From positions 1 through 64,000 of IMG/VR virus record IMGVR_UViG_2600255062_000003: DNA of 64,000 nucleotides; one strand, given 5' to 3'. The notes under the pieces are model-generated. The model was given only the letters and a program-made list of their open reading frames with translations, made no database searches and was not told where the DNA came from. The stretch is from a virus (lineage: Duplodnaviria > Caudoviricetes). Shown piece after piece: positions 1,360 to 14,306 of the stretch. Every line of letters starts with the position of its first letter. Positions within the stretch are counted from its first letter, which is position 1. A program made the position numbers and the translations under genes.

Positions 1360-1411
1360 ATTGTACATTTAGCTGATGCAAAGTGTCAATGACATGTTAG
1401 AAAAACTCACA
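1360..1411 (-). promoter_or_regulatory. glnRA sigmaA promoter with GlnR/TnrA box
   Basis: Minus strand TTGACA-18nt-TACAAT (1389-1360); TGTTA-N7-TCACA at 1395-1411 matches TGTNAN7TNACA. Confidence 0.8.
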
Positions 1412-2660
1412 ATAATTTACGTTCTTTCATCGTTTGCAGTGCCATAAGCACTCCAAATTTAACATGAGAGTAGGTTAACCCCCCTTGCATGTAACCAATA
1501 TAAGGCTCACGAATAGGAGCATCTGCGGATAGTTCCAAACTTCCCCCTTGTATGAACGTACCTGCAGCCATGATAACTGGATGCTCATAACCCGGCATAT
1601 CCCACGGTTCCGGCACCACATGGCTATCCACGGCAGCCGCACGCTGAATGCCCTGTACAAAAGCAATTAGATGCTCTGGTCCACTAAAAGAAATAGCCTG
1701 AATCAAATCCGTACGCTCTTCATGCCAGGCAGGTTTGGTCTCAAATCCCATCTCTTCAAAGACCGCAGCTGCGAATACGCTCCCTTTAACCGCTTGCCCA
1801 ACCAGTGTTGGAGCAAGGAATAGTCCCTGAAATATGCCTCGTGTAGTACCTAGCATGGCTCCTACTTCTCCACCAATTCCAGGTGCAGTTAATCGGTACG
1901 ATGCCAGCTCTACAAACTTTTGTTTGCCGCAGATATATCCACCCGTTTCTGCAATGCCACCACCGGGATTTTTAATTAACGAACCTGCCATCAAATCGAC
2001 ACCGACTTGAGTAGGTTCCAGCTTCTCGGTAAATTCACCGTAGCAATTGTCAACAAAGACAATAACGTCAGGTTTTATTTCCTTCACACGTGCTGTCATT
2101 TCTTCAATATCTGCTACACTAAAGGAAGCTCTCCAATCATAACCGCGTGAGCGCTGAATACCGATTACTTTGGTATTGTCATGGATCGCAGCCTTCACTG
2201 CTTCCCAGTCCACTTTACCTTCCGCTGTCAGTGAGGTTTCTCCATAAGTAACGCCAAAATCCTGCAATGATCCTGTTCCGTCGCCGGGCTTACCAATCAC
2301 TTTATGCAGGGTATCATAAGGCCTCCCAGTAATGTACAACAGTTCATCCCCTGGACGCAGCACACCAAATAAAGCAGTGGCAATTGTATGAGTACCCGAA
2401 GCAAAATGCGGACGCACCAACGCTGCCTCCGCACCGAACACTTCCGCATAGACTTCTTCCAGCACCTCACGTCCCCGGTCATTGTAAGCATATCCCGTCG
2501 AACCCGCAAAGTGGAAATCGCTCACTTGCTTCCGCTGGAATGCCTGAATTACCTTCCACTGATTTGAATCTACAATATGATCTATGTGCTGTATACGTTC
2601 TTGTATTTTATGTTCTGCCGTTTCCTGAATTTGCTGTATTTCTGGACTAAAAACTACCAT
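1407..2660 (-). CDS. ynbB: PLP-dependent methionine gamma-lyase/aluminium-resistance family protein
   Basis: 417 aa; SGTH, DNCYGEF and GSLIKNPGGG motifs; conserved hflX-ynbB-glnR-glnA order. Confidence 0.9.
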   Translation of the reverse strand: MVVFSPEIQQIQETAEHKIQERIQHIDHIVDSNQWKVIQAFQRKQVSDFHFAGSTGYAYNDRGREVLEEVYAEVFGAEAALVRPHFASGTHTIATALFGVLRPGDELLYITGRPYDTLHKVIGKPGDGTGSLQDFGVTYGETSLTAEGKVDWEAVKAAIHDNTKVIGIQRSRGYDWRASFSVADIEEMTARVKEIKPDVIVFVDNCYGEFTEKLEPTQVGVDLMAGSLIKNPGGGIAETGGYICGKQKFVELASYRLTAPGIGGEVGAMLGTTRGIFQGLFLAPTLVGQAVKGSVFAAAVFEEMGFETKPAWHEERTDLIQAISFSGPEHLIAFVQGIQRAAAVDSHVVPEPWDMPGYEHPVIMAAGTFIQGGSLELSADAPIREPYIGYMQGGLTYSHVKFGVLMALQTMKERKLL

Positions 2661-2771: not shown

Positions 2772-4058
2772 TTAACCTTCTGTGAACTCGCTGAGCGCAT
2801 GACCATACTTTTCGTACTCGCCTCTTTGAATTTCAACTTCATAAATGACATCATTGCCATCATACTCTGTCAGTAGTACATCTCCAATTCGATAAAGCAC
2901 CGATGTTAAATCTCCACGTTCCGCAGGAATACGAAATCTCAGCGTATCACCACTCAGATGCTCTTGAATCAGTTCGCGAATGCCCAGCAAATCCCCTTCA
3001 TCAAAAGCGCTGATTTTCAAATAACCCTCCCCGGAAGGAAGCATTTCGAGTTGCTCAGGAGTACAGGCATCTTTTTTGTTAAATAATACGATCTGAGGCT
3101 TGTCCGCAGCCCCTAGCTGCTGCAAGATCGTCTCTACAACTTTCATCTGTTCGTCTCGCATATCCGAAGACGCATCCACGACATGCAAAATGAGATGTGC
3201 CTCATTCGCCTCCTCCAAAGTAGCCCGGAAGGAAGCCACCAAATCATGAGGAAGATTTTGAATAAAACCGACCGTATCCGTAAGAATAACTTCTTTTCCA
3301 CTCGGAAGTTCCATTGTTCTGGAGGTAGGATCCAGCGTCGCAAACAGTTGGTTCTCAATATATACATCGGCTGCTGTCAGTTGCTTCAACAGCGTCGATT
3401 TGCCCGCATTGGTATAGCCAACAAGTGCAACCTGAACAATACCGCTCTTTTGTCTGCGCTCCCTGTGCAAATACCGGTGACGGGTCACTTCCTCCAATTG
3501 GCGTTTCAGATCACTGATTCGGTCACGGATATGACGACGGTCTGTCTCCAGCTTGCTTTCACCAGGACCACGTGTTCCGATTCCACCGCCAAGACGCGAG
3601 AGGTTTTTGCCATGTCCAGACAAACGGGGGAGTAAATATGACAACTGCGCCAGTTCAACCTGAATAATACCTTCCCGGGTTTTTGCACGTTGAGCAAAAA
3701 TGTCCAGAATCAACTGTGTACGGTCAATAATTTTGAGATCCAGACTTTCTTCCAGATTCCGTACTTGGGCCCCCGAGAGCTCCTGATCAAAAATTGCTGT
3801 ATTCGCTCCCAATTCTTCAGCAACTGCACGTAATTCCTCTACTTTTCCTTTACCAATAAACCATTTTGAGTCCTTGGCTTCCTTATTCTGTGTCAGGACG
3901 CTCAGTACCTCAACTCCCGCTGTCTCAGCCAGTTTCACTAACTCATCCAACGAGTATTCCGTATTAATACCAGATCGTTTGACTTCATCCGTAATCAGAC
4001 TGACCAGAACCGCCTTGTCCTGCATTTCGGTTTGTGTATCATGAGTGGAGTTCGCCAT
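2772..4058 (-). CDS. hflX: Ribosome-splitting GTPase HflX
   Basis: GYTNAGKST, FATLDPT, DTVGFI, NKKD and GGGIGTRGPGESKLE motifs. Confidence 0.97.
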   Translation of the reverse strand: MANSTHDTQTEMQDKAVLVSLITDEVKRSGINTEYSLDELVKLAETAGVEVLSVLTQNKEAKDSKWFIGKGKVEELRAVAEELGANTAIFDQELSGAQVRNLEESLDLKIIDRTQLILDIFAQRAKTREGIIQVELAQLSYLLPRLSGHGKNLSRLGGGIGTRGPGESKLETDRRHIRDRISDLKRQLEEVTRHRYLHRERRQKSGIVQVALVGYTNAGKSTLLKQLTAADVYIENQLFATLDPTSRTMELPSGKEVILTDTVGFIQNLPHDLVASFRATLEEANEAHLILHVVDASSDMRDEQMKVVETILQQLGAADKPQIVLFNKKDACTPEQLEMLPSGEGYLKISAFDEGDLLGIRELIQEHLSGDTLRFRIPAERGDLTSVLYRIGDVLLTEYDGNDVIYEVEIQRGEYEKYGHALSEFTEG

Positions 4059-4171: not shown

Positions 4172-4581
4172 CTATCTTTTATCCATTTTCAAATCCTCTG
4201 GACGCAGCGTCATCAATTCCTGTTTGCCGGGTTGCCCGCTCCTGTACTGATTAAGCAACCTGACAGCTTGGTGCCGAATCGCTTTTTCAATCACATTACG
4301 AACATAGCGTGCATTACTAAATGCATGAAGACTGTCATTACGCTCGTTTAGCAAATGCTCCTTCATTTTAATTATGGACTGAGGCATGAGAATATAATCC
4401 CGCTCCTTGGCCATCATCTCGGAAATTTGGATGAGCTGATCCACAGTATAATCAGGAAAATCCAACTGGATTGGAAAGCGAGAAGGAAGACCAGGATTCG
4501 TTCGTAAAAAAAAGTCCATTTCCCCCGAGTATCCAGCGAGAATCAAAATAAATTGATTTTTTTGATCTTCCATGGACTTGG
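4172..4581 (-). pseudogene. spoVK: 3' half of host spoVK (AAA ATPase), interrupted by the prophage
   Basis: KSMEDQKNQFILILAGY...NPGLPSRF...FSNARYVRNVIEKAIRHQAVRLL; Walker A/B half absent; canonical position upstream of hflX. Confidence 0.9.
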
Positions 4582-6236
4582 CGACTGTTTGCATTTATAT
4601 GTTTATTATCGGATTCTTTCTTCTCATAATCAACAAAGCCCAGATGTAAATAAACATTTATTTTATTGTCTTCAGTAAGTATAACTTTTTTCACAAACAG
4701 TCGCGTCACTTTTCTCTTGGTCTCCATATCTATATGGTCATTATCGAGCAAATATTTAAAAGATCGTAGTGATTTTTGTACCATTTCAATATGGTTTTGC
4801 TTATTAAACACAGTTGATAAGCTTTTTTCTATTACTTGTAATTCCTCTTTTATGTCTTGTACCTGCAAATCCACCGCTGATACCTTGTCCTCTAAATCCT
4901 TCATTGATTTGATTATTCCAGCCGCATACATCTCTGTATAACGTTCGCGAGACGCTTCTTTTTCCTGTAGGGACTTTTCTAATTTCTTTTTTTGTTTAAG
5001 CAATTCATCAGTGTTTGAGTTTTCTGATTGCTGTTTAATTATACGTTCAAAAAATTCTGTTGGTTCAGATATAATATTTTTAATGTACTCCCAAACAATC
5101 TTATCTACGTAATCAACTCTCCAATTACGTCCCTCACAGATCGGATTGGACTCTCCTGTTCCAACTTCCCATGATTTTTTCGTTTTATGTTGACAAACGT
5201 AATATTTCAGCAGCCCACTTTTAGTCTTCGTAGTCACACCCGACGATACTGCCGCGCCACATCTTCCACATCGACAAATACCTTGCAAAAGATAATCTTC
5301 TGTTGGTCTACCAGATTTGTTTTTGTTTAGTTCATCAAGTCTCTTTTGAATTTTATGATATGTCTCCATTGTAATGTATGCAGGTACAGGTATACGTCTC
5401 CATTCTTCCCTTGGTTGTGGAACTTGCTTCTTTGTTCCATCGGCATTACGAATTACTTTAGATTTGCCAAAATAATAGTTTCCTGTATACGTTTCATTTT
5501 TAAATATTCTACTAATCGTAACTTGATACCATCTATCTTTTTTAGGGGCTGCTACGTTATGTAGAGATAATTCCTCAGCAATCCTAGAACAGCTATAATC
5601 ATTATGTAGGAGCTTATCAACCATTTTTAAATAAATTTCTTTTTCTTCTGGATTCTCAACAAGTGTGTCTAGTTCTGTATCGTAAGTATACCCATAAATT
5701 CTATTTAATCCCGGTATAAGTCCATTTTTGACTTTAGTAATTCTTCCACGTTTGGTATCTGCTAAAATTTTTGCTTTATTATATTCAGCAATACTACCTT
5801 GAATGTTAAAGTTCAACATTGATTCGGGACTCGATTTATCAAATTCGAACTCCACAAACCAGAAGTCTTTTCCCATACCCCATATACGATTAGACAGTTG
5901 GGTTTGTAAATGCAGGAAACGACTCATTCTATTGGGATGTAAAAAAATCACGTGGTCTCCAATCCCATATTCAAGCAAAAATAAAGCGTAATTAATCATT
6001 GGACGATTAGGATTGTCTCCACTTTCACCATCTTCAACTAGAACCACTACTTCATCTTCGGTAATACCTTTTTGCTTGGCTAAATCCATACATCTCTCGA
6101 TCTGAGACTCTATTGAATAGTTGTCAACTTGTCCGTCAGTTGAAACACGAGCATAAATAAGAGCCTTGATCTTTGTGACCAAGGCTTCAAGCTCAGTTTT
6201 GGTGAATTTTTCTGAACCAGTTAAAGTCCTGAGCAT
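4452..6236 (-). CDS. Large serine recombinase (integrase)
   Basis: YARVST catalytic motif, recombinase domain, CGRCG/YYVC zinc ribbon, coiled coil; AGGAGG RBS. Confidence 0.95.
   Translation of the reverse strand: MLRTLTGSEKFTKTELEALVTKIKALIYARVSTDGQVDNYSIESQIERCMDLAKQKGITEDEVVVLVEDGESGDNPNRPMINYALFLLEYGIGDHVIFLHPNRMSRFLHLQTQLSNRIWGMGKDFWFVEFEFDKSSPESMLNFNIQGSIAEYNKAKILADTKRGRITKVKNGLIPGLNRIYGYTYDTELDTLVENPEEKEIYLKMVDKLLHNDYSCSRIAEELSLHNVAAPKKDRWYQVTISRIFKNETYTGNYYFGKSKVIRNADGTKKQVPQPREEWRRIPVPAYITMETYHKIQKRLDELNKNKSGRPTEDYLLQGICRCGRCGAAVSSGVTTKTKSGLLKYYVCQHKTKKSWEVGTGESNPICEGRNWRVDYVDKIVWEYIKNIISEPTEFFERIIKQQSENSNTDELLKQKKKLEKSLQEKEASRERYTEMYAAGIIKSMKDLEDKVSAVDLQVQDIKEELQVIEKSLSTVFNKQNHIEMVQKSLRSFKYLLDNDHIDMETKRKVTRLFVKKVILTEDNKINVYLHLGFVDYEKKESDNKHINANSRQVHGRSKKSIYFDSRWILGGNGLFFTNESWSSFSLSNPVGFS
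4570..4600. other. Host/prophage junction (att site), crossover near 4578-4583
   Basis: SpoVK-like reading stops upstream of ...CAAGTCCATGGAAGAT; sequence becomes AT-rich; adjacent to serine integrase. Confidence 0.75.
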
Positions 6237-6281
6237 AAAGTTCCTCCTATTATCTATTATATGATTATTTTTATGTATTAA

Positions 6282-6434
6282 TTATATATCTTTTGGTACT
6301 AAATGAGAATACTTTTTCATGGTATTTTCCAGCCACAATGAAAATTCGTTCTTTATTTCTTCTATCGGTTTGGCATCTTCTTCGTTAACAGCGTGGACTA
6401 CTACTTCAAAACTATCTATCTTACTTCTTTTCAA
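6282..6434 (-). CDS. 50-aa protein not in ORF track, candidate recombination directionality factor
   Basis: GAGAGGGGGGAG RBS, TTG start: MKRSKIDSFEVVVHAVNEEDAKPIEEIKNEFSLWLENTMKKYSHLVPKDI; directly upstream of integrase. Confidence 0.55.
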   Translation of the reverse strand: MKRSKIDSFEVVVHAVNEEDAKPIEEIKNEFSLWLENTMKKYSHLVPKDI

Positions 6435-6518
6435 TCTACTCCCCCCTCTCTATTGGTATTGAAAGAAGGTATTTAAATAGTTGTCTACAGTCTGTAAAAT
6501 ACTACTTTTATCATGAAA

Positions 6519-7067
6519 TTATTTGCTGCAACCATATGTATTTATTGCATTTTTAACAAAATCATTTAAGTGGTAATGCCACTTGCTTCTTTTTTTAAAT
6601 CCATTAAGTTCTATCCCTATCTCTTCACATATGCCTATAGGTATGCTGCTTTTATTCACTCTGTTCTTATATGTATGGCTAAGCTGATTTTGAGCAGTAA
6701 ATTGGTACTTAACAAAATCCTTGATATGTATAAAGAAAACTCTATTGTCTGGTTCTCTAAAATTTATAATAAAACCACTAATAACATTGTCGTACTCACT
6801 AGCCTCTTTTAATTTGTCAATCTGATGCTGTTTAATTACACTCTCATCAAAACTAACCGATTTTTGTTTTGTGGATTTAAGCTCTAAAGTAAAAAGATAT
6901 TTCTCAGAAAACATCATGCAGTCATAATCATTTTTCGTAACCCTAATTCTGTTTCTTAATTCCGCTGGAATAAAAGTATCTTTAATTCTGGTAAAAAATA
7001 TCTTCTGAGTTGATTCAGCAGACGCTTGAAAGTCACCCTCAAAAAGCTTTCCCTCATTCTTACTCAT
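6519..7067 (-). CDS. RecU-like Holliday junction resolvase
   Basis: GKLFEGDF...DC...LELKST...HQIDKL PD-(D/E)xK pattern. Confidence 0.7.
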   Translation of the reverse strand: MSKNEGKLFEGDFQASAESTQKIFFTRIKDTFIPAELRNRIRVTKNDYDCMMFSEKYLFTLELKSTKQKSVSFDESVIKQHQIDKLKEASEYDNVISGFIINFREPDNRVFFIHIKDFVKYQFTAQNQLSHTYKNRVNKSSIPIGICEEIGIELNGFKKRSKWHYHLNDFVKNAINTYGCSK

Positions 7068-7596
7068 AGGAAGCTCTCCATCATCTTCAAACGATCATCC
7101 AAATAATCTGTTTCTAATTTCACTAGTTCCTCATACTTCTCTTCCTTTATAAATCCATACTTATTGTACATCTCAAGTCTTTTTAATGTATGTGTCTTCA
7201 ACTCTTTAATCAATTCAATATTATGACCAACTAAATTCAAACTACCATTCCTCTCCTGCAATAATTATTTTTGCTCCATTCGCTTTCTTTAAACAGTCAT
7301 AGTCGTCGTGAACGTTCAGACCCTCGAATAAGATCAATATTTCCTCTCCAACTAAGATGTCTTCATTACACCCCGCACAAATTGAAAATCTGTTCACCTC
7401 CTTATCTTGTGCGTCAGGAAATCTATATTCATGATATGGAGTTTCAAATCTATCAAAGTTATTTGCCATTATTGTTCATCTAGAAGCTTGTTCAGGACGA
7501 TTGATACAATCTCTTTGTACTCTTTCTCGCTAAGCTTCCGATTCAAAATACTTTCAATCTTGTATTTGCTCAACTTGTCCATAAAGTTATTCTCCT

Positions 7597-10500
7597 TTAA
7601 CTTTTTCGCTCAGTAGTTACTTTAACTGTGCCATCTTCTCTAATTTCATCTATAAACATAGTGGTATGTTTAACTCTTGAGTCTTTATAGTTGTATGGTC
7701 TAAACTGTGAGCCTCTGCGATATCCAAACAGAATCAATTTGTTACCACGCGTAAACCATGATCTTTCAATAATTTCTTTAGTTCCATCTTGTTTCGGTTT
7801 TGATATTTGTTTGTTGTAATGTGCAAAAGCACCATCGTAATATTTCGCGGTAACTACTCCAGTAGTCGTAAGAATCGTTACAGTATTCTTATTTTTGTCT
7901 TTATCTAAAACAGTCCCAGTAATGAAGTCCAACTTAAATTTGGGTCTAGTTGAACCATTCCTAAATTTCATCATTTCTACCACCACTGGATCTTCAGGCA
8001 GCTCAAAGAAATTTACAATTCCGTATTTGGCTGTATCAATGTTTTTAAGTTCGTGTTCTGTGTAGTAAAAAGATAAAGAGTCCATTTCCCATTTACTCAA
8101 TGTACCTGAAGCTAAACTATTCCATTCGTTTTGATATAGTTTTGAATTAAAAAGAGACAGAGTACTATCTTCAGTTAGCCAACTCTTTATTCCTTCTATC
8201 TTTTTATCGTATTCTTTTTTGAATGTTCGTTCTGCTATGATTGGGAAATTATTGTGATAATCTTTTATAGCTTCTCCTGAAAAGTGCTCATAATAAAAAG
8301 GAGTGGAAATTTTATCGAGCAAGTAAAACTTCTCTTTACCTTCTTTACCATAGACATTTTTGATAATGTACTTTCTAAAGTTGAACAGTCTTTTATATTG
8401 GGACATATCTTCTGGAATCAGATTATTTTCAATAAGAGCATTAAAGTTCTGCATAGTAACTTTTTGTTTAGGTGTAAAAATCTTATGTATAAATTGCTTC
8501 ATAATTTCTAAACGATCACCAAAAGATTCAAAGCAACCAGCTTTAATCAACTGAATTACTTGGGACTTTTTGATGATTGAGGTATTAAACATCCTCTCGA
8601 TAAAATCATCAAAAGATTTATATGGTCTATGTTTAATAATGTTCTGAACAACATCATCACCAATGCCATTGATTCCTTTTAGTCCAAAAACAATTTGATT
8701 AAGCTCTGTATCGGGAAAAAATCCATAATCGGCTTTGCTTATATCTGGAAGACCTATTTTAACACCACGACTTTGCATGTTCCCAATTGCAGAAGCAATT
8801 TTTCCGTAGTTTGTGGATTGTGTTTTAGTATCTTCATTTTCATCGTGAATGGAAGCAGAGTTTACTGTTAAACATGCTGTTCTCCAATAAATAGGATCGT
8901 AAATATTATTCAAGTTAGCTTCCTGTAACGCGATAATTGAATAAGCCAAGGTATGTAACACAGAGAATGAATATCCTAACTGTCTAACTATTTGTTTATT
9001 CCAGACATAATCTAGGATCTCTTTTCTATTCTTTAACTCCAATCCTTTCTTATAAAATTTATTCTTTATGTCTTCGATTTCATTTGCTTTTTTCTTTGCA
9101 ATAATTTTCCTGAGCTTATTTGCTTCTTGGATTGTAAATCCTGCCACTTTTTTGTCCATTGAAAGAAGCATTATAGACTCTTGTGTGTCTGCTACTCCAT
9201 TCAATGCAAGTAAATGCTTCTTCATAGTCTCTATTTCTTCTTCATTTAAAAAATTCTCGTGCAATTCCTTGTACCATTCATTAATATCCTTTTTAAATCT
9301 GATAAAGCTATCAATTGGTGTTTCGCTGTTATGGTCACCCATAAGACGCATAAGTGAGTTTGCAGCAGCTAGTTCGATTAGATTAGATGGTTTAGTTCTT
9401 TTTACGGTTTGTATTCCTATTTCTGTGGAAAACTGAAAAAGATCAGTTATACTATCCGAACCAATTAGGTCATATATTTCTTGACTCTTTATGTCGATAA
9501 TATTGGGATGCAAATATTTGTTATAAGTTTTTCGAATTGATCCTTGCCACTCCATTAGATTTTCTTTAATTAGAAAATCCAATGCCACACGAATCTTATC
9601 CAAACCCTCGATTGTTAACAAGTCGAATTTCATATTTGATACGGCTTCACAATCTTCTAGGCTAAGTTGCGTTACATGAGTACCATTAGGAGCGGTCATC
9701 ATGGCATTAGTTTTATAATATTCTTCATTGAAAACTATTACACCACTAGCATGAATACTTCTTTTGTTTACTAGTCCCTCAATTTTCATTGCCACATTGA
9801 GCCAATTATCAAATTTATTTATTTCAGTAACAAACTCTTTAACTGGCTTACGTTCTTTTTCTTCATTTCCATTAACACAATCTGTTAACGTCCAACTGCT
9901 GCCTCTTTCGAAAGGAATTAGTCCAGACACATACATAGCCGTATCATTATCGATCCCTAGCCCTCTAGCTGCTGTTTGTACAGCAGATTTTGATGCTTCT
10001 GTACCAAATGTGCAAACCTGTAGAACTTGGTTTTCACCAAAGTATTTCTTTAGTTGTTTGAAGATCTGATTCCGTTTTGCTGCTTCAGTATCGATATCAA
10101 TATCTGGGAATTCTGGTCTCTCTGCTGTTAAGTGTCTCCAATGTGGCATTTCGATACCATACTCTAAAGGATTAACCTGAGTAATTCCCAAGAGGAAGCA
10201 AATTAAGTACCCAGCAGAAGAACCACGAGATGGGCCAACCAAACTATTCCCACACTCATCATCCCAAATAACATTTACAATTTCTCGAACTGTAATGTAG
10301 TAACTTGCTACTGATTGATTCATTTTCTCAGATATCTTCCATAGTTCGCCCAATTCAGTGTTAATTCTAGCGGCTACTTTATGCAATTTTTCTTTCGAGT
10401 AGGTGTTGTATGGAAGATACTCTCTAAATCCGTCTTCTATTAATTTTACTATGTATCTATCTTGGCTATTATTCGAGTGAGCCATTTTATCTATAAATTC

Positions 10501-11541
10501 ATACTGAGAATAAATTGAACGAAATAATCCACTAATTTCGAAGTTTGGAAGATCGATTTTAGGGATAATCGTTGGTTTTAAAATAGTATAATCTTTAATC
10601 TTGTTACCGACTTCTATTGTATTGTTTAATGCTTTCATTATCACATCGTGACTTAGGTAACTTAAGCGATCATTTATCTCCTCGTGATTTTGTACAAAGG
10701 TTGCCTCATAAAATGAATCAACTTCCCGTTCTCCTTCTTTTGCATTTAGGAAAGCCTTATGTACAATACGATCTTCTGGACGAAGATAATGACTATCTGT
10801 TGTTACTATGTATTTAAGACCAAACTTATCAGCCAATAGAAGCAACTGCTTGTTACAATAAATTTGTTCCTCGCTATAGGCAGGTTGCAGTTCTAAATAG
10901 AAATCCTCTTTACCAAAAACATCGATACACCAATTTGTAAAATCACATACCTTTTTATAGCTCTTTTTTGCTTCTTCTCTATTGTTATTTTCTAGATGTG
11001 ATTTCATCTCCAACAGATATATACAATGAAGTGAACCTAAACATGCAGATGAAGCAATCAAATGCCCCGGATTTTCTTTTACAACTGATCGTAAAAAGCT
11101 ACGTTCTGTCGGTGTTCTTAGCATTGGGCCTGTGAAAAATGAATCGTTCCAAGCCTTTGAACTCATATAGCGAAGCTGTTCATGACCAATTGCATCTTTA
11201 GCCAACAATAAAAAGTGTGGAAACTTAGTAACTCCAGACTTATAATTATCTCTTACTTCTTCAAGACTCTCGACAAGATAGATTTCATTGCCCAATATTA
11301 GTTTAAAGTCTTTATGTATTTTGCCTTCTTGTTTCAGTTTTTCTGTTGTCTGGATTGCCTTAACATGTGCTGAGATGGATTCATGATCTGTGATAGCCAC
11401 TCCCTTATGTCCCATGTCATAGGTTGTTTTTATCAGTTCTTCTACCCGATTAGTTGTATCACGAAGTTTTAGGTTTGACCCCCTATCAACGTGATTGTGG
11501 AGTAATATCGAATTACATTTATCACACAAATTAATCAACAC
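7597..11541 (-). CDS. dnaE: Phage DNA polymerase III alpha subunit (SPbeta YorL-like)
   Basis: 1314 aa; PHP domain (HNH, TDHE, TTDSHY), SRGSSAG, PDIDID, KFDLL. Confidence 0.93.
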   Translation of the reverse strand: MLINLCDKCNSILLHNHVDRGSNLKLRDTTNRVEELIKTTYDMGHKGVAITDHESISAHVKAIQTTEKLKQEGKIHKDFKLILGNEIYLVESLEEVRDNYKSGVTKFPHFLLLAKDAIGHEQLRYMSSKAWNDSFFTGPMLRTPTERSFLRSVVKENPGHLIASSACLGSLHCIYLLEMKSHLENNNREEAKKSYKKVCDFTNWCIDVFGKEDFYLELQPAYSEEQIYCNKQLLLLADKFGLKYIVTTDSHYLRPEDRIVHKAFLNAKEGEREVDSFYEATFVQNHEEINDRLSYLSHDVIMKALNNTIEVGNKIKDYTILKPTIIPKIDLPNFEISGLFRSIYSQYEFIDKMAHSNNSQDRYIVKLIEDGFREYLPYNTYSKEKLHKVAARINTELGELWKISEKMNQSVASYYITVREIVNVIWDDECGNSLVGPSRGSSAGYLICFLLGITQVNPLEYGIEMPHWRHLTAERPEFPDIDIDTEAAKRNQIFKQLKKYFGENQVLQVCTFGTEASKSAVQTAARGLGIDNDTAMYVSGLIPFERGSSWTLTDCVNGNEEKERKPVKEFVTEINKFDNWLNVAMKIEGLVNKRSIHASGVIVFNEEYYKTNAMMTAPNGTHVTQLSLEDCEAVSNMKFDLLTIEGLDKIRVALDFLIKENLMEWQGSIRKTYNKYLHPNIIDIKSQEIYDLIGSDSITDLFQFSTEIGIQTVKRTKPSNLIELAAANSLMRLMGDHNSETPIDSFIRFKKDINEWYKELHENFLNEEEIETMKKHLLALNGVADTQESIMLLSMDKKVAGFTIQEANKLRKIIAKKKANEIEDIKNKFYKKGLELKNRKEILDYVWNKQIVRQLGYSFSVLHTLAYSIIALQEANLNNIYDPIYWRTACLTVNSASIHDENEDTKTQSTNYGKIASAIGNMQSRGVKIGLPDISKADYGFFPDTELNQIVFGLKGINGIGDDVVQNIIKHRPYKSFDDFIERMFNTSIIKKSQVIQLIKAGCFESFGDRLEIMKQFIHKIFTPKQKVTMQNFNALIENNLIPEDMSQYKRLFNFRKYIIKNVYGKEGKEKFYLLDKISTPFYYEHFSGEAIKDYHNNFPIIAERTFKKEYDKKIEGIKSWLTEDSTLSLFNSKLYQNEWNSLASGTLSKWEMDSLSFYYTEHELKNIDTAKYGIVNFFELPEDPVVVEMMKFRNGSTRPKFKLDFITGTVLDKDKNKNTVTILTTTGVVTAKYYDGAFAHYNKQISKPKQDGTKEIIERSWFTRGNKLILFGYRRGSQFRPYNYKDSRVKHTTMFIDEIREDGTVKVTTERKS

Positions 11542-11699
11542 ACCCCTTCCTATAAAATATTGATTTTAATTAAATCCTATATGAACACTTTGCATCTCTC
11601 ACCTCCTTTAATATTTATAAGGCTTCATAAAGAACAATCAATGGATTTCTGCTAAGTTGAATAGGTATGATTGTTCTTTATGGACAAATACAATTTAAT

Positions 11700-12674
11700 T
11701 TATGGCATTATGACAGACTCTCTTTTATTCATTTCAATATTTGAATTTGATATATCTCGTGGCAAAATATCCATTAAATTTTGCTTAGAGATTTTTACAC
11801 GTCTACTCATTATTCTGACAGCTTGGTGCCGAATTGCTTTTTCAATCACGTTACGAACATAGCGTGCATTACTAAAATTACTTCTTGAGTCTTTCTCAAT
11901 CTGAATTATTTCTCTTAGCTTTATCAGTGCATCAGAGGTAATGTTGTAGTCTTTTTCATATGCCATCTTTACTGCAATTAACATTAACTCGTCTGTTGTG
12001 TAATCCTGAAAATCTATTTGTATTGGAAACCGGGATGGAAGACCAGTATTTGTTCTAAGGAACATCCCCATCTCATCTGGATAGCCTGCAAGGATAATTA
12101 TTAAATCATCACTTCTATCCTCCATGACTTTTACAAGACAGTCTATTGCTTCCTTTCCAAAATCTTTATCACCTCCCCTAGCCAAACTGTAGGCTTCATC
12201 AATAAAAAGGATTCCTCCCATAGCTTTCTTAACAAGATCACGTGTTTTTTGTGCGGTGTGACCGATGTATTCTCCAACTAAGTCTGCTCGTTCCACCTCA
12301 ATCAGATGACCTTTACTAAGGATACCCATTCTGTTTAGCAATTTAGAAGCTATTCTTGCCACTGTCGTCTTCCCTGTACCGGGATTCCCTTTGAATATCA
12401 TATGGTATACCTGACTACTATTTTTCAAACCTTCTTCACTTCTAAGTTTTTGCACCTGTATCAATGCATAAATCTCATACACAAGATCTTTTACCTTTTC
12501 AAGTCCAATCATTTCATCTAGATCCTTAAATATGTCTGCTGCGGATTCATAATGATTACTGGTTAATGGGACTTCTTCGTTTTGCTCAGATATTGTTTCA
12601 TAAGCCTCTTGACTTTTAAAGACAACATTAATTCTTGATTCATTAACAGTAATCCTTCTGGAGTTTCCATCCAC
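11700..12674 (-). CDS. spoVK: Phage-encoded intact SpoVK-like AAA ATPase
   Basis: GNPGTGKTT, ERADLVGEYIGHTAQKT, LFIDEAYSL, FSNARYVRN; GAGGTG RBS favours GTG at 12674. Confidence 0.9.
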   Translation of the reverse strand: MDGNSRRITVNESRINVVFKSQEAYETISEQNEEVPLTSNHYESAADIFKDLDEMIGLEKVKDLVYEIYALIQVQKLRSEEGLKNSSQVYHMIFKGNPGTGKTTVARIASKLLNRMGILSKGHLIEVERADLVGEYIGHTAQKTRDLVKKAMGGILFIDEAYSLARGGDKDFGKEAIDCLVKVMEDRSDDLIIILAGYPDEMGMFLRTNTGLPSRFPIQIDFQDYTTDELMLIAVKMAYEKDYNITSDALIKLREIIQIEKDSRSNFSNARYVRNVIEKAIRHQAVRIMSRRVKISKQNLMDILPRDISNSNIEMNKRESVIMP

Positions 12675-12696
12675 AGTAATCACCTCTCGTTGTGAC

Positions 12697-12726
12697 AGTA
12701 TATGCCTAATATGGTCTACAACATGC
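12697..12726 (-). promoter_or_regulatory. Candidate sporulation-sigma promoter of phage spoVK
   Basis: GCATG-17nt-CATATACT upstream of the RBS; CATA-N3-T -10 resembles sigE/sigG/sigK promoters. Confidence 0.45.
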
Positions 12727-12857
12727 TGATATGTTTTATCAAATATTTAATGCCATTAACATAACACTTATTCACTTAGAACCTCAGATATTCAGTTTGA
12801 TTTTGCTTTTAATCCTTGTAACTTCCCTCATTTTATGTATTGTAGGCCGAAGCCTAC

Positions 12858-13137
12858 TCAAGTCCCTATAAAATCATCTAAGCTTTTATCAAGATCTGAT
12901 TGCGATATAAAATCAACTTCTTCTAATTCTTCTTTATTCACAACGAGTTCATCATCAATTGCAACTTTGCTCCCTAAAATTTCAGGTTTTCTACCTTTGT
13001 GCCCAAATAAGAATTGTCTTAAAGCTTCTCTAACGATGTCGCTCTCGTCATAATATACAGGAAGTTTACTTAGCGCTTTTTTTGAGGTCATCGTCCTTTC
13101 CGTTTCTGAGTCTTGCGCTAACTAATTTCTTCCCCAT
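12858..13137 (-). pseudogene. ParR-like ribbon-helix-helix adaptor, frameshifted in an A7 run
   Basis: MGKKLVSARLRNGKDDDLKK joins ALSKLPVYYDESDIVREALRQFL if one A is removed at 13077-13083; start overlaps parM end. Confidence 0.6.
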
Positions 13138-14087
13138 GCTCTAACCCCAATTTTTTCATATCCTCTTATTTGTGCAAGCTGATCGAAAAGTATTTTATTC
13201 TTGAAATTAAGCATGTTAAAAACCTGATGTGCTGCACCTCCACCAATTAGATAATAATCAAAATCTATATTTAGTCCATCAATCTCATTTTGAATTTGGA
13301 TTGCTAATGATTTAAACGCTTTTGCTATTAACGGTTTTATATTTCGTCCTTCATATATACCGCTTATCACATACTTGTCTAGTTCATAAATAGCTGGAGC
13401 CTTACCAATAGTATTCATCAGATACTTACGCAATAGCTGATATGCCTTTTCGACTCCCAGCAATAAGCTTGTTGACTCTTTCATGATTTCTAGTTTATCT
13501 AATCCTAAAAGGTTTAAAGTGTAAAATCCTAAGTCAATTACCAATACCTTTTTATTTGCAATATGTACTTTTTGAATCTTTCCTTTATTGTCTAACAGAT
13601 AGTCCATTGCTATTCCATATCCCTGTGGAACAAGTTTATATTTATTTATATGAAGTTTAATTTCTGAATAATTCCCCCTACCTTTCTTAAGACTATAAGT
13701 ATCCTCTGTATTTATTCTATCCAGCATCTTTTCCATATCACTTTTTTGATTGAAATAGAATAATACAGGTAGTCCAGTTACCATATTAAATGGATTATTT
13801 TTATTTAGATATCCTAATCCAGTTTTCAGTAAAACGTCCGAAGTCATCGCTTCACTCTTATTATTTTTAAGTGTAAAATATTTAATCTCACTATGCCTTA
13901 AGGCAACATTTCCCACAAATAATTCATCATTATAGAAAAAATCATTTGGCTTGATGTTTTCTTCAAACATTGGTTGAACATCGCCAGAGATAGAAGGCTG
14001 AAGATACATTGTATTGCCTGTTTTCCCCTTGGTGTAGCTAAATCCGAGATCAATCACACTTAAATTTTTCACTACAGTTAAAGCCAT
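13122..14087 (-). CDS. ParM/StbA-family actin-like ATPase
   Basis: IDLGFSYTK, VTGLP, PQGYG, IDLGFYT and GGGA actin-fold motifs; GGAGG RBS before ATG 14087. Confidence 0.85.
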   Translation of the reverse strand: MALTVVKNLSVIDLGFSYTKGKTGNTMYLQPSISGDVQPMFEENIKPNDFFYNDELFVGNVALRHSEIKYFTLKNNKSEAMTSDVLLKTGLGYLNKNNPFNMVTGLPVLFYFNQKSDMEKMLDRINTEDTYSLKKGRGNYSEIKLHINKYKLVPQGYGIAMDYLLDNKGKIQKVHIANKKVLVIDLGFYTLNLLGLDKLEIMKESTSLLLGVEKAYQLLRKYLMNTIGKAPAIYELDKYVISGIYEGRNIKPLIAKAFKSLAIQIQNEIDGLNIDFDYYLIGGGAAHQVFNMLNFKNKILFDQLAQIRGYEKIGVRAWGRN

Positions 14088-14306
14088 GATATTACCTCCA
14101 AATACAATGAGTATCAAAGTATGACAGTATCTCAACAGTGTCGTACAATGTAATACATTCTATAAGATGATTATATCACGGCTTTATCATTTTGTATATA
14201 TATGATTATATTTATTTATATAATATTTTGATCCTATAAGAGTAGTATTGAGCAATGTATAAAATCAGGATTTTACGTAGATTATTGATTCATAAAACCC
14301 TTATAA

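Follow-up and report, generated by a model that had tools for sequence, protein, structure and literature searches.

A phage-type spoVK gene carried by an SPbeta-like prophage that interrupts spoVK in Paenibacillus: a candidate for complementation in trans

The standard example of active lysogeny is a prophage lying within a sporulation gene, which is repaired when the prophage excises at the proper time. The locus described here raises the question of how a Paenibacillus lysogen could complete sporulation when a prophage splits its spoVK gene and carries a full-length spoVK homologue of its own. It points to what may be a second solution, in which the phage brings along a working copy of the gene that it destroys. 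The DNA analysed (the window) is the first 64 kb of the 171,352-bp IMG/VR virus record IMGVR_UViG_2600255062_000003, and its relevant features are listed in Table 1.

Table 1. Features of the window around the split host spoVK and the phage-borne spoVK
Feature	Positions	Strand	Remarks
Host methionine gamma-lyase family gene (ynbB-like)	1407..2660	(-)	Pfam PF06838, E 3e-194
Host hflX, native downstream neighbour of spoVK	2772..4058	(-)	Pfam GTP-bdg_N, GTP-bdg_M, MMR_HSR1
Host spoVK 3' fragment, ~residues 197-327 (sensor + Arg-finger region + AAA lid)	4172..4569	(-)	TIGR02881 match
Host partner of the conversion tract	4259..4321	(-)	Pairs with 11814-11876
Goe14-type large serine integrase, prophage form	4452..6236	(-)	594 aa; Pfam Resolvase, Recombinase, Zn_ribbon_recom
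attR core AAGTCCATGG, crossover within	4570..4579	(-)	AAG = Lys codon of LVK-x-MED; attB identity begins here
Holliday-junction-resolvase-like gene, travels with the integrase module	6519..7067	(-)	phrog_843, E 2.7e-26; adjoins integrase in relatives
YorL-type DNA polymerase III alpha, hallmark of the SPbeta backbone	7597..11541	(-)	55% identity over 99% of length to SPbeta YorL
Full-length phage spoVK (AAA+ ATPase)	11700..12683	(-)	327 aa, or 324 aa from GTG 12674
63-nt tract read as gene conversion, codons FSNARYVRNVIEKAIRHQAVR of phage copy	11814..11876	(-)	Near-identical to host 4259-4321
Candidate mother-cell (sigma-E/sigma-K type) promoter	12697..12726	(-)	-35 GCATGTT 12726-12720, 15-nt spacer, -10 CATATACT 12704-12697
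Conserved GC-rich hairpin GTAGGCTTCGGCCTAC, 3' of upstream gene	12842..12857	(-)	Invariant in 9/9 prophage sequences of alignment A1
Actin-like partition protein (ALP), upstream neighbour of the spoVK cassette	13122..14135	(-)	Pfam ALP_N, phrog_691

The GC content of the window is 42-47% in the left flank, falls to ~33% near 4.5 kb and stays low thereafter. The flank retains the native neighbourhood spoVK-hflX-ynbB. Since hflX and the methionine gamma-lyase gene are 98.4% and 94.7% identical, respectively, to those of P. peoriae KCTC 3763, the host is assigned to the polymyxa/peoriae group of Paenibacillus and not to Bacillus. The window contains the integrase-side end of an SPbeta-like prophage of ~170 kb. 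The other end of the record (169992-171352) lies inside an ORF of 453 aa, where the GC content is still phage-like. Integration of SPbeta-like phages into spoVK has already been published by Kohm et al. (bioRxiv 10.1101/2021.11.22.469490), who showed that an AAG Lys codon is the point of entry of Goe14 in B. subtilis spoVK.

According to the original prediction, host spoVK is split at about position 4580. This was confirmed, as DNA with the intact P. peoriae spoVK (L020) aligns to the window at 88.6% identity from 4579 down to base 1 and then ends, the alignment to the intact gene stopping at 4579. The ORF 4172-4594 of the minus strand, which contains the host 3' fragment (95% identity to P. 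peoriae SpoVK), covers only positions 131-261 of the TIGR02881 spore_V_K model, which has 261 positions. Alignment of the junction (window ...GTCGCC-AAG-TCCATGG-AAGATC... against attB ...TTGGTA-AAG-GCTATGG-AAGACC...) shows that host spoVK is cut at the codon for Lys in LVK-x-MED, which is also where the AAG core of Goe14 lies. In the complete lysogen G047, attL and attR have 10 bp in common (AAGGCCATGG). An ATG in the phage arm of attR (4594-4580, minus strand) opens an ORF of 140 aa (MQTVAK-SMED...), from which the C-terminal half of host SpoVK might be expressed alone.

The 5' half of the gene, expected at the far end of the prophage, is absent from the 171-kb record and from five related IMG/VR records, which end inside the prophage. 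The expectation held in complete relatives: G047 (prophage of ~174 kb), G006 (~164 kb) and G072 (~158 kb) contain both halves. In G006, the order runs from the 3' half (35.8 kb) through the phage copy (42 kb) to the 5' half (200.7 kb), and G047 and G072 have a similar layout of split halves and phage copy. In the host 5' half, the promoter and both Walker motifs (A and B) are still present, and the fragment terminates just past LVK. A third 5' fragment of spoVK was observed in G006 (Paenibacillus sp. NPDC057886) on a 1.1-kb contig (C40, 249-779); it corresponds to residues 16-194, with 60% identity to P. peoriae. As is characteristic of intervening elements of the skin/SPbeta type, the element in the window breaks up the reading frame of a sporulation gene and bears a serine recombinase at its end.

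The best phage matches to the integrase are those of Goe14, SPR, BUCT082, BUCT083 and SPbetaL2 (41.9% identity over 93% of the length), and all of these top five carry the Goe14-type integrase. Besides this homology, the two attachment sites assign the element to the Goe14 type: attB is the AAG codon for Lys in spoVK, and attP falls within the 3' end of the integrase gene. In Goe14 itself, attP is located inside the integrase 3' coding region and integration alters the C-terminus of the integrase (bioRxiv 10.1101/2021.11.22.469490). The integrase ORF of the window spans attR, its last ~43 codons (4452-4579) coming from host spoVK DNA in another frame. For G047, an enzyme of 681 aa is predicted in the circular, excised form versus 594 aa in the integrated form; the excised form's C-terminal domain becomes a separate small ORF at attL upon integration, and this detached tail is homologous to a small attL ORF in P. 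medicaginis. The host-encoded tail varies in length among hosts because it stops at different places. In-frame stops in some integrases were considered as a sign of dead enzymes, and this was rejected since all of them lie in the host-encoded tail past attR.

The polymerase places the element near SPbeta at the protein level (55% identity), and a megablast of 4600-12800 against phage records gave no match, so that no close SPbeta-type DNA relative was detected among them. Together, these two results indicate a distant, Paenibacillus-borne relative of the SPbeta group. The similarity is at the protein level only, and on this evidence the element falls outside the genus Spbetavirus as delimited by the ~70% ANI criterion of Kohm et al.

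The second component of the locus is the phage spoVK gene, which sits 7 kb inside the prophage between the ALP and polymerase genes. The original prediction had described it as a full-length, AT-rich SpoVK homologue, and it is indeed 327 aa long, has GC of 36% and GC3 of 29%, resembling its phage neighbours, and matches nearly the whole TIGR02881 model (positions 3-260 of 261, 406 bits). The score is below the equivalog cut-off of 422.95, as are those of native-locus Paenibacillus spoVK genes (range 413-419; P. peoriae 418.6, P. amylolyticus 413.1), and the next families score far lower for the phage protein (CbbX 267, EccA 240). An AAA domain (PF00004, E 1.5e-17) and an AAA_lid_6 domain (PF17866, E 1.8e-17) were recognized. 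The protein is 59% identical to P. peoriae SpoVK, with which GNPGTGKT, ILFIDEAY and PSRF align, Walker A, Walker B and the Arg-finger region thus being kept. The first in-frame start is the GTG at 12683; the Shine-Dalgarno sequence GAGGTGAT is better spaced for the GTG at 12674, which is the likely start. Pairwise dN/dS values among the prophage copies are 0.015-0.064, with synonymous sites saturated between subclades, and the copies are under strong purifying selection. In P. medicaginis (L007, 8887-10957), a phage-type spoVK lies just inside attL, 470 nt past the truncated host 5' half, a position in which the promoter of host spoVK could drive its transcription. This copy has an in-frame TAA after ...AQKTR and may be a pseudogene, or the stop may be a sequencing error.

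A -10-type element upstream of phage spoVK, which had also been predicted, was found together with a -35 box (Table 1). The composite GCATnTT-N15-CATATACT occurs once in the 64-kb window, where 0.04 occurrences would be expected; nor is its -10 block a motif used throughout the phage. Within alignment A1, in which the copies are 74-99% identical, GCATnTT and GCATATACTGTC are conserved at a fixed distance of 15 nt and the spacer is variable, the pattern to be expected of a real promoter; the element is a candidate on this ground. No sigma-A-like promoter was found upstream of phage spoVK on its strand. The native Paenibacillus spoVK genes are preceded by TAATAAn-N14-AATACATT. The sigma-E consensus is kmATAww-14-CATACAhT; measured against this consensus, the native motif appears to be a close match, and the phage motif is probably of the same class with a poorer fit (-35 at 6/7 positions, 15-nt spacer). 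The conserved hairpin downstream of the preceding gene probably separates the spoVK unit from upstream transcription. A terminator scan around the cassette found nothing, the conserved hairpin lacking the T-run that the scanning rule requires.

Related prophages were compared to see whether the carried gene goes with the integration site. The ten related IMG/VR proviruses and L004 have spoVK copies that are 74-99% identical. The order ALP - spoVK - polymerase - integrase - host 3' fragment - hflX is present in 9/10 of these proviruses and in L004, and it is constant despite integrase identities of only 48-90% and an exchange of the polymerase module in several of them. We surveyed 93 Paenibacillus species genomes (species representatives): spoVK is split in five (G006, G047, G072, G079 and G010), each with a phage-type copy, and no split spoVK without such a copy occurs among the 93. 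In the complete lysogen G047, the phage copy (96% identical to that of the window) is the sole intact spoVK. The same ALP-polymerase backbone is integrated at other sites in G031 and G066, where host spoVK is intact and the polymerase gene comes immediately after ALP, no spoVK lying between the two. The G031 prophage (L154, 7802-9493 of the reverse complement) has a polymerase 78% identical to that of the window and an unrelated serine recombinase (22%). The other site, unrelated recombinase and missing cassette of G031 show that the integration module and the cassette are exchangeable. An ALP-protein scan of IMG/VR had been tried as a source of copy-less control phages and returned only close relatives; the controls therefore come from the genus survey.

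The linkage is not absolute. L090, G083 and G024 (L146 for G083, L147 for G024) keep the spoVK copy though their integrase has been swapped, and host spoVK is intact in G083 and G024. In these three (L090, 15655-17580), a different serine recombinase of 495 aa abuts ytfJ (Spore_YtfJ), another sporulation gene; no second ytfJ copy was found in the G003 record. Carriage of the copy is thus not strictly tied to the spoVK site, and the association (5/5 versus 2/4) is one of small counts that is not significant alone. Taken with the conserved gene order, the comparison of genomes nevertheless documents a link of the copy with spoVK integration. No deposited SPbeta-like phage with such a gene was found: Goe14, SPR, BUCT082, BUCT083 and SPbetaL2 have no spoVK copy, five Bacillus-type proviruses have both spoVK halves and no copy, and the best phage matches (phage G, Emery, Adler and gut contigs) reach 35-45%.

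The phage copy and the host 3' fragment have also exchanged sequence. The tract of 63 nt in the phage copy differs from its host partner at 3/63 nt, against a background identity of 58%. Within L087, the phage and host tracts are 1 nt apart, whereas 9-14 nt separate them from their counterparts in other lysogens. No such tract exists in the group of L004, L088 and L089 (18-20 differences). Near-identity together with co-variation within lysogens marks this as gene conversion between the two copies. A crossover at the tract would remove the polymerase and integrase and yield a hybrid spoVK; no hybrid with a phage 5' part and a host 3' part joined at the common tract occurs among the 93 species representatives.

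The phage-type gene is also found outside prophages. It is the only spoVK, between native neighbours (DUF402 or DUF218 on one side, hflX on the other), in at least seven species: P. tundrae, G058, G061, G069, G029, P. dendrobii and P. solani. The phylogeny had been named as a check in the original prediction: in a maximum-likelihood tree all prophage copies fall into one clade (100/98 support) nested within Paenibacillaceae SpoVK, and this clade includes the native-locus genes. The sole chromosomal genes are nested at three separate places in it, namely P. tundrae with G058, G029, and P. dendrobii with P. solani, the last two grouping with the P. medicaginis prophage copy. G061 and G069 were left out of the tree; their identity of 78-79% is the same as that of P. 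tundrae. The GC content of the phage-type sole genes is 4-9 points below that of their flanks (five genes measured), whereas host-type spoVK genes are level with their flanks in GC. A host-type spoVK is present in the close relatives P. amylolyticus and P. illinoisensis. In P. dendrobii, a decayed host-type 3' remnant (EISELIAKERDYVWLPRAIIKLKKHLI, E 1e-9 to 1e-10) is still present between the phage-type gene and hflX.

The sole phage-type genes most probably arose by replacement of the host gene, for which this comparative support is good, and the simplest reading would be that prophage decay left phage spoVK as the working gene. P. tundrae is described as spore-forming (PMC13164912). Sole-copy status gives the best evidence at hand that phage spoVK can take over the function of the host gene. 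We lean slightly towards a wider view of phage spoVK as a portable allele that permits permanent occupancy of spoVK without a spore cost and that, together with its promoter, stays behind as the sole spoVK after prophage decay; on the tree, there would have been three or more separate events of this kind in Paenibacillus. If so, a core developmental gene would have been replaced under the drive of a phage, and ongoing gene conversion would be the visible trace of the exchange.

We propose the following course of events. The Goe14-type integrase inserted the ~170-kb prophage into spoVK at the Lys codon of LVK-x-MED, leaving the 5' half more than 165 kb away and the 3' half next to hflX. The phage cassette is self-contained, with a candidate sigma-E/sigma-K-type promoter, a strong Shine-Dalgarno sequence and a full-length AAA+ ATPase gene. 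The mother cell would transcribe it during sporulation, and phage SpoVK would do the job of the broken host gene, so that mature spores could form without prophage excision. Linkage to the site, purifying selection, the mother-cell-type promoter and repeated sole-copy status make complementation in trans well supported by comparison, and we put the probability that phage spoVK supplies the disrupted function in trans and that the lysogen sporulates without excision at roughly 0.7. The split of host spoVK, the intact copy, purifying selection on it, recombination with the host fragment and sole-copy status at the native locus are all documented in the genomes compared; sporulation-specific expression of phage spoVK and actual complementation are what we infer. 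The further claim of the original prediction, that the need to excise is removed, gains no support from these data: the phage has an intact integrase, and one route does not shut out the other.

The original prediction had also held that the phage copy is diverged at the position equivalent to attB and may therefore be immune to self-integration. The site does differ at 22/60 positions, three of them in the 10-bp core; the divergence does not go beyond the gene-wide identity of ~58%, with 63% identity at the site versus 58% across the 3' half, and it gives no special signal of immunity. Immunity of the copy is nevertheless plausible, as the core and both arms differ from attB. The AAA Lys codon of the phage copy, as opposed to AAG in attB, was considered as a mark of immunity and rejected, since host-type genes have 38 AAG and 37 AAA and the phage is AT-rich.

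Among the alternatives, excision in the mother cell deserves the most attention. It would restore spoVK as in SPbeta/spsM and skin/sigK, and the copy would be no more than a back-up, or else a relic of host DNA captured long ago. In 9/9 lysogens checked, the integrase reading frame runs across attR undamaged, so that excision may still occur and could restore spoVK and make the copy redundant. Excision is also the published rule for SPbeta and phi3T (PMC4191935), and the Bacillus phages at the same site lack a copy, so another route must exist there. Against this, no sprB-like directionality factor is known for Goe14-type phages, and none was recognized in this prophage. A relic would not be expected to show such low dN/dS with saturated synonymous sites, to conserve a dedicated promoter or to be fixed as the sole spoVK in several species. 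We consider this explanation improbable on balance, though worth keeping in view.

A SpoVK-like ATPase might instead serve the phage itself as a remodeller in replication, assembly or counter-defence, unrelated to the integration site. SpoVK/CbbX-like AAA+ proteins do occur in phages that do not use spoVK (phage G gp596, 45%; Brevibacillus phage Emery and mycobacteriophage Adler, ~35%), the copy is retained in the three phages adjoining ytfJ, and the gene sits among replication and partition genes. However, phage SpoVK nests inside Paenibacillaceae SpoVK, away from those phage proteins, and gave no match to a dedicated PHROG. Same-backbone relatives at other sites (G031, G066) do without the copy, its promoter is not a phage-wide motif, and the same lineage provides the only chromosomal spoVK in spore-forming species. 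A role of this kind is very unlikely. Slightly less credible still is modulation of sporulation by the copy (delay, block or timing), for instance through mixed hexamers with a truncated host N-terminal fragment, which could be made from the host 5' half with its promoter, Walker A and Walker B and which would recall the phage-encoded sporulation regulators altering dormancy treated in PMC9429907, because the species with the phage-type gene as their only spoVK are spore-formers and all catalytic motifs are intact, with no sign of a degenerate or inhibitory variant.

Complementation in trans, if confirmed, would explain why an essential sporulation gene can be occupied by an element of 170 kb, and it would show one way in which a core gene of the host comes to be replaced by a phage gene, with fossils of the process in several species. 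It would also provide a natural pair for comparing excision with complementation at the same attB codon, since the copy is absent from the Bacillus phages and present in those of Paenibacillus. For annotation, the results are a warning that several Paenibacillus genes named spoVK are of phage origin.

The nearest known system is the Goe14 group, with which the element shares the integrase family (41.9%), the attB codon, attP inside the integrase 3' end and an SPbeta-like backbone (YorL 55%). It differs from that group in its host (Paenibacillus versus the B. subtilis clade), in size (~158-174 kb for the prophages with both ends present versus 125-135 kb), in the absence of megablast-level DNA similarity and in the spoVK copy, which Kohm et al. 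do not mention. For Goe14, these authors found no sprB-like factor and left the restoration of spoVK in sporulation 'to be investigated' (bioRxiv 10.1101/2021.11.22.469490). SPbeta in spsM, skin in sigK and vfbin in spoVFB interrupt sporulation genes that are restored by excision (Abe et al., PMC4191935). Like them, the element described here is a prophage with a terminal serine recombinase in a mother-cell sporulation gene; unlike them, it brings an intact, separately promoted copy, whereas those elements use developmentally timed excision and have no replacement gene.

Compensation by an element for its own insertion damage is known in another form. Some integrative elements rebuild their target by carrying the displaced part, such as the 3' ends of tRNA or tmRNA genes, and SXT supplies a new 5' end of prfC. 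In SPbeta-like phages, a 106-bp duplication of glnA rebuilds the target (Kohm et al., bioRxiv 10.1101/2021.11.22.469490). All of these supply a junction segment in cis, whereas here a whole gene (59% identity) with its own promoter is carried, 7 kb from the junction in the window and at the other prophage end in P. medicaginis. Phage homologues of host sporulation genes have likewise been reported, namely the SpoVK-like gp596 of phage G, whose authors found no other phage SpoVK homologue (PMC12484599), and the phage sigma factors treated in PMC9429907; in the accounts cited, neither is paired with disruption of the host gene, and the SpoVK-like proteins of such phages are 35-45% identical. We found no publication on a spoVK-integrating phage that carries spoVK, nor on Paenibacillus spoVK alleles of the phage type. 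Insertion of a Goe14-type prophage into spoVK is known; what would be new is a replacement gene that the phage carries to act in trans and that lives on in evolution as a gene of the host.
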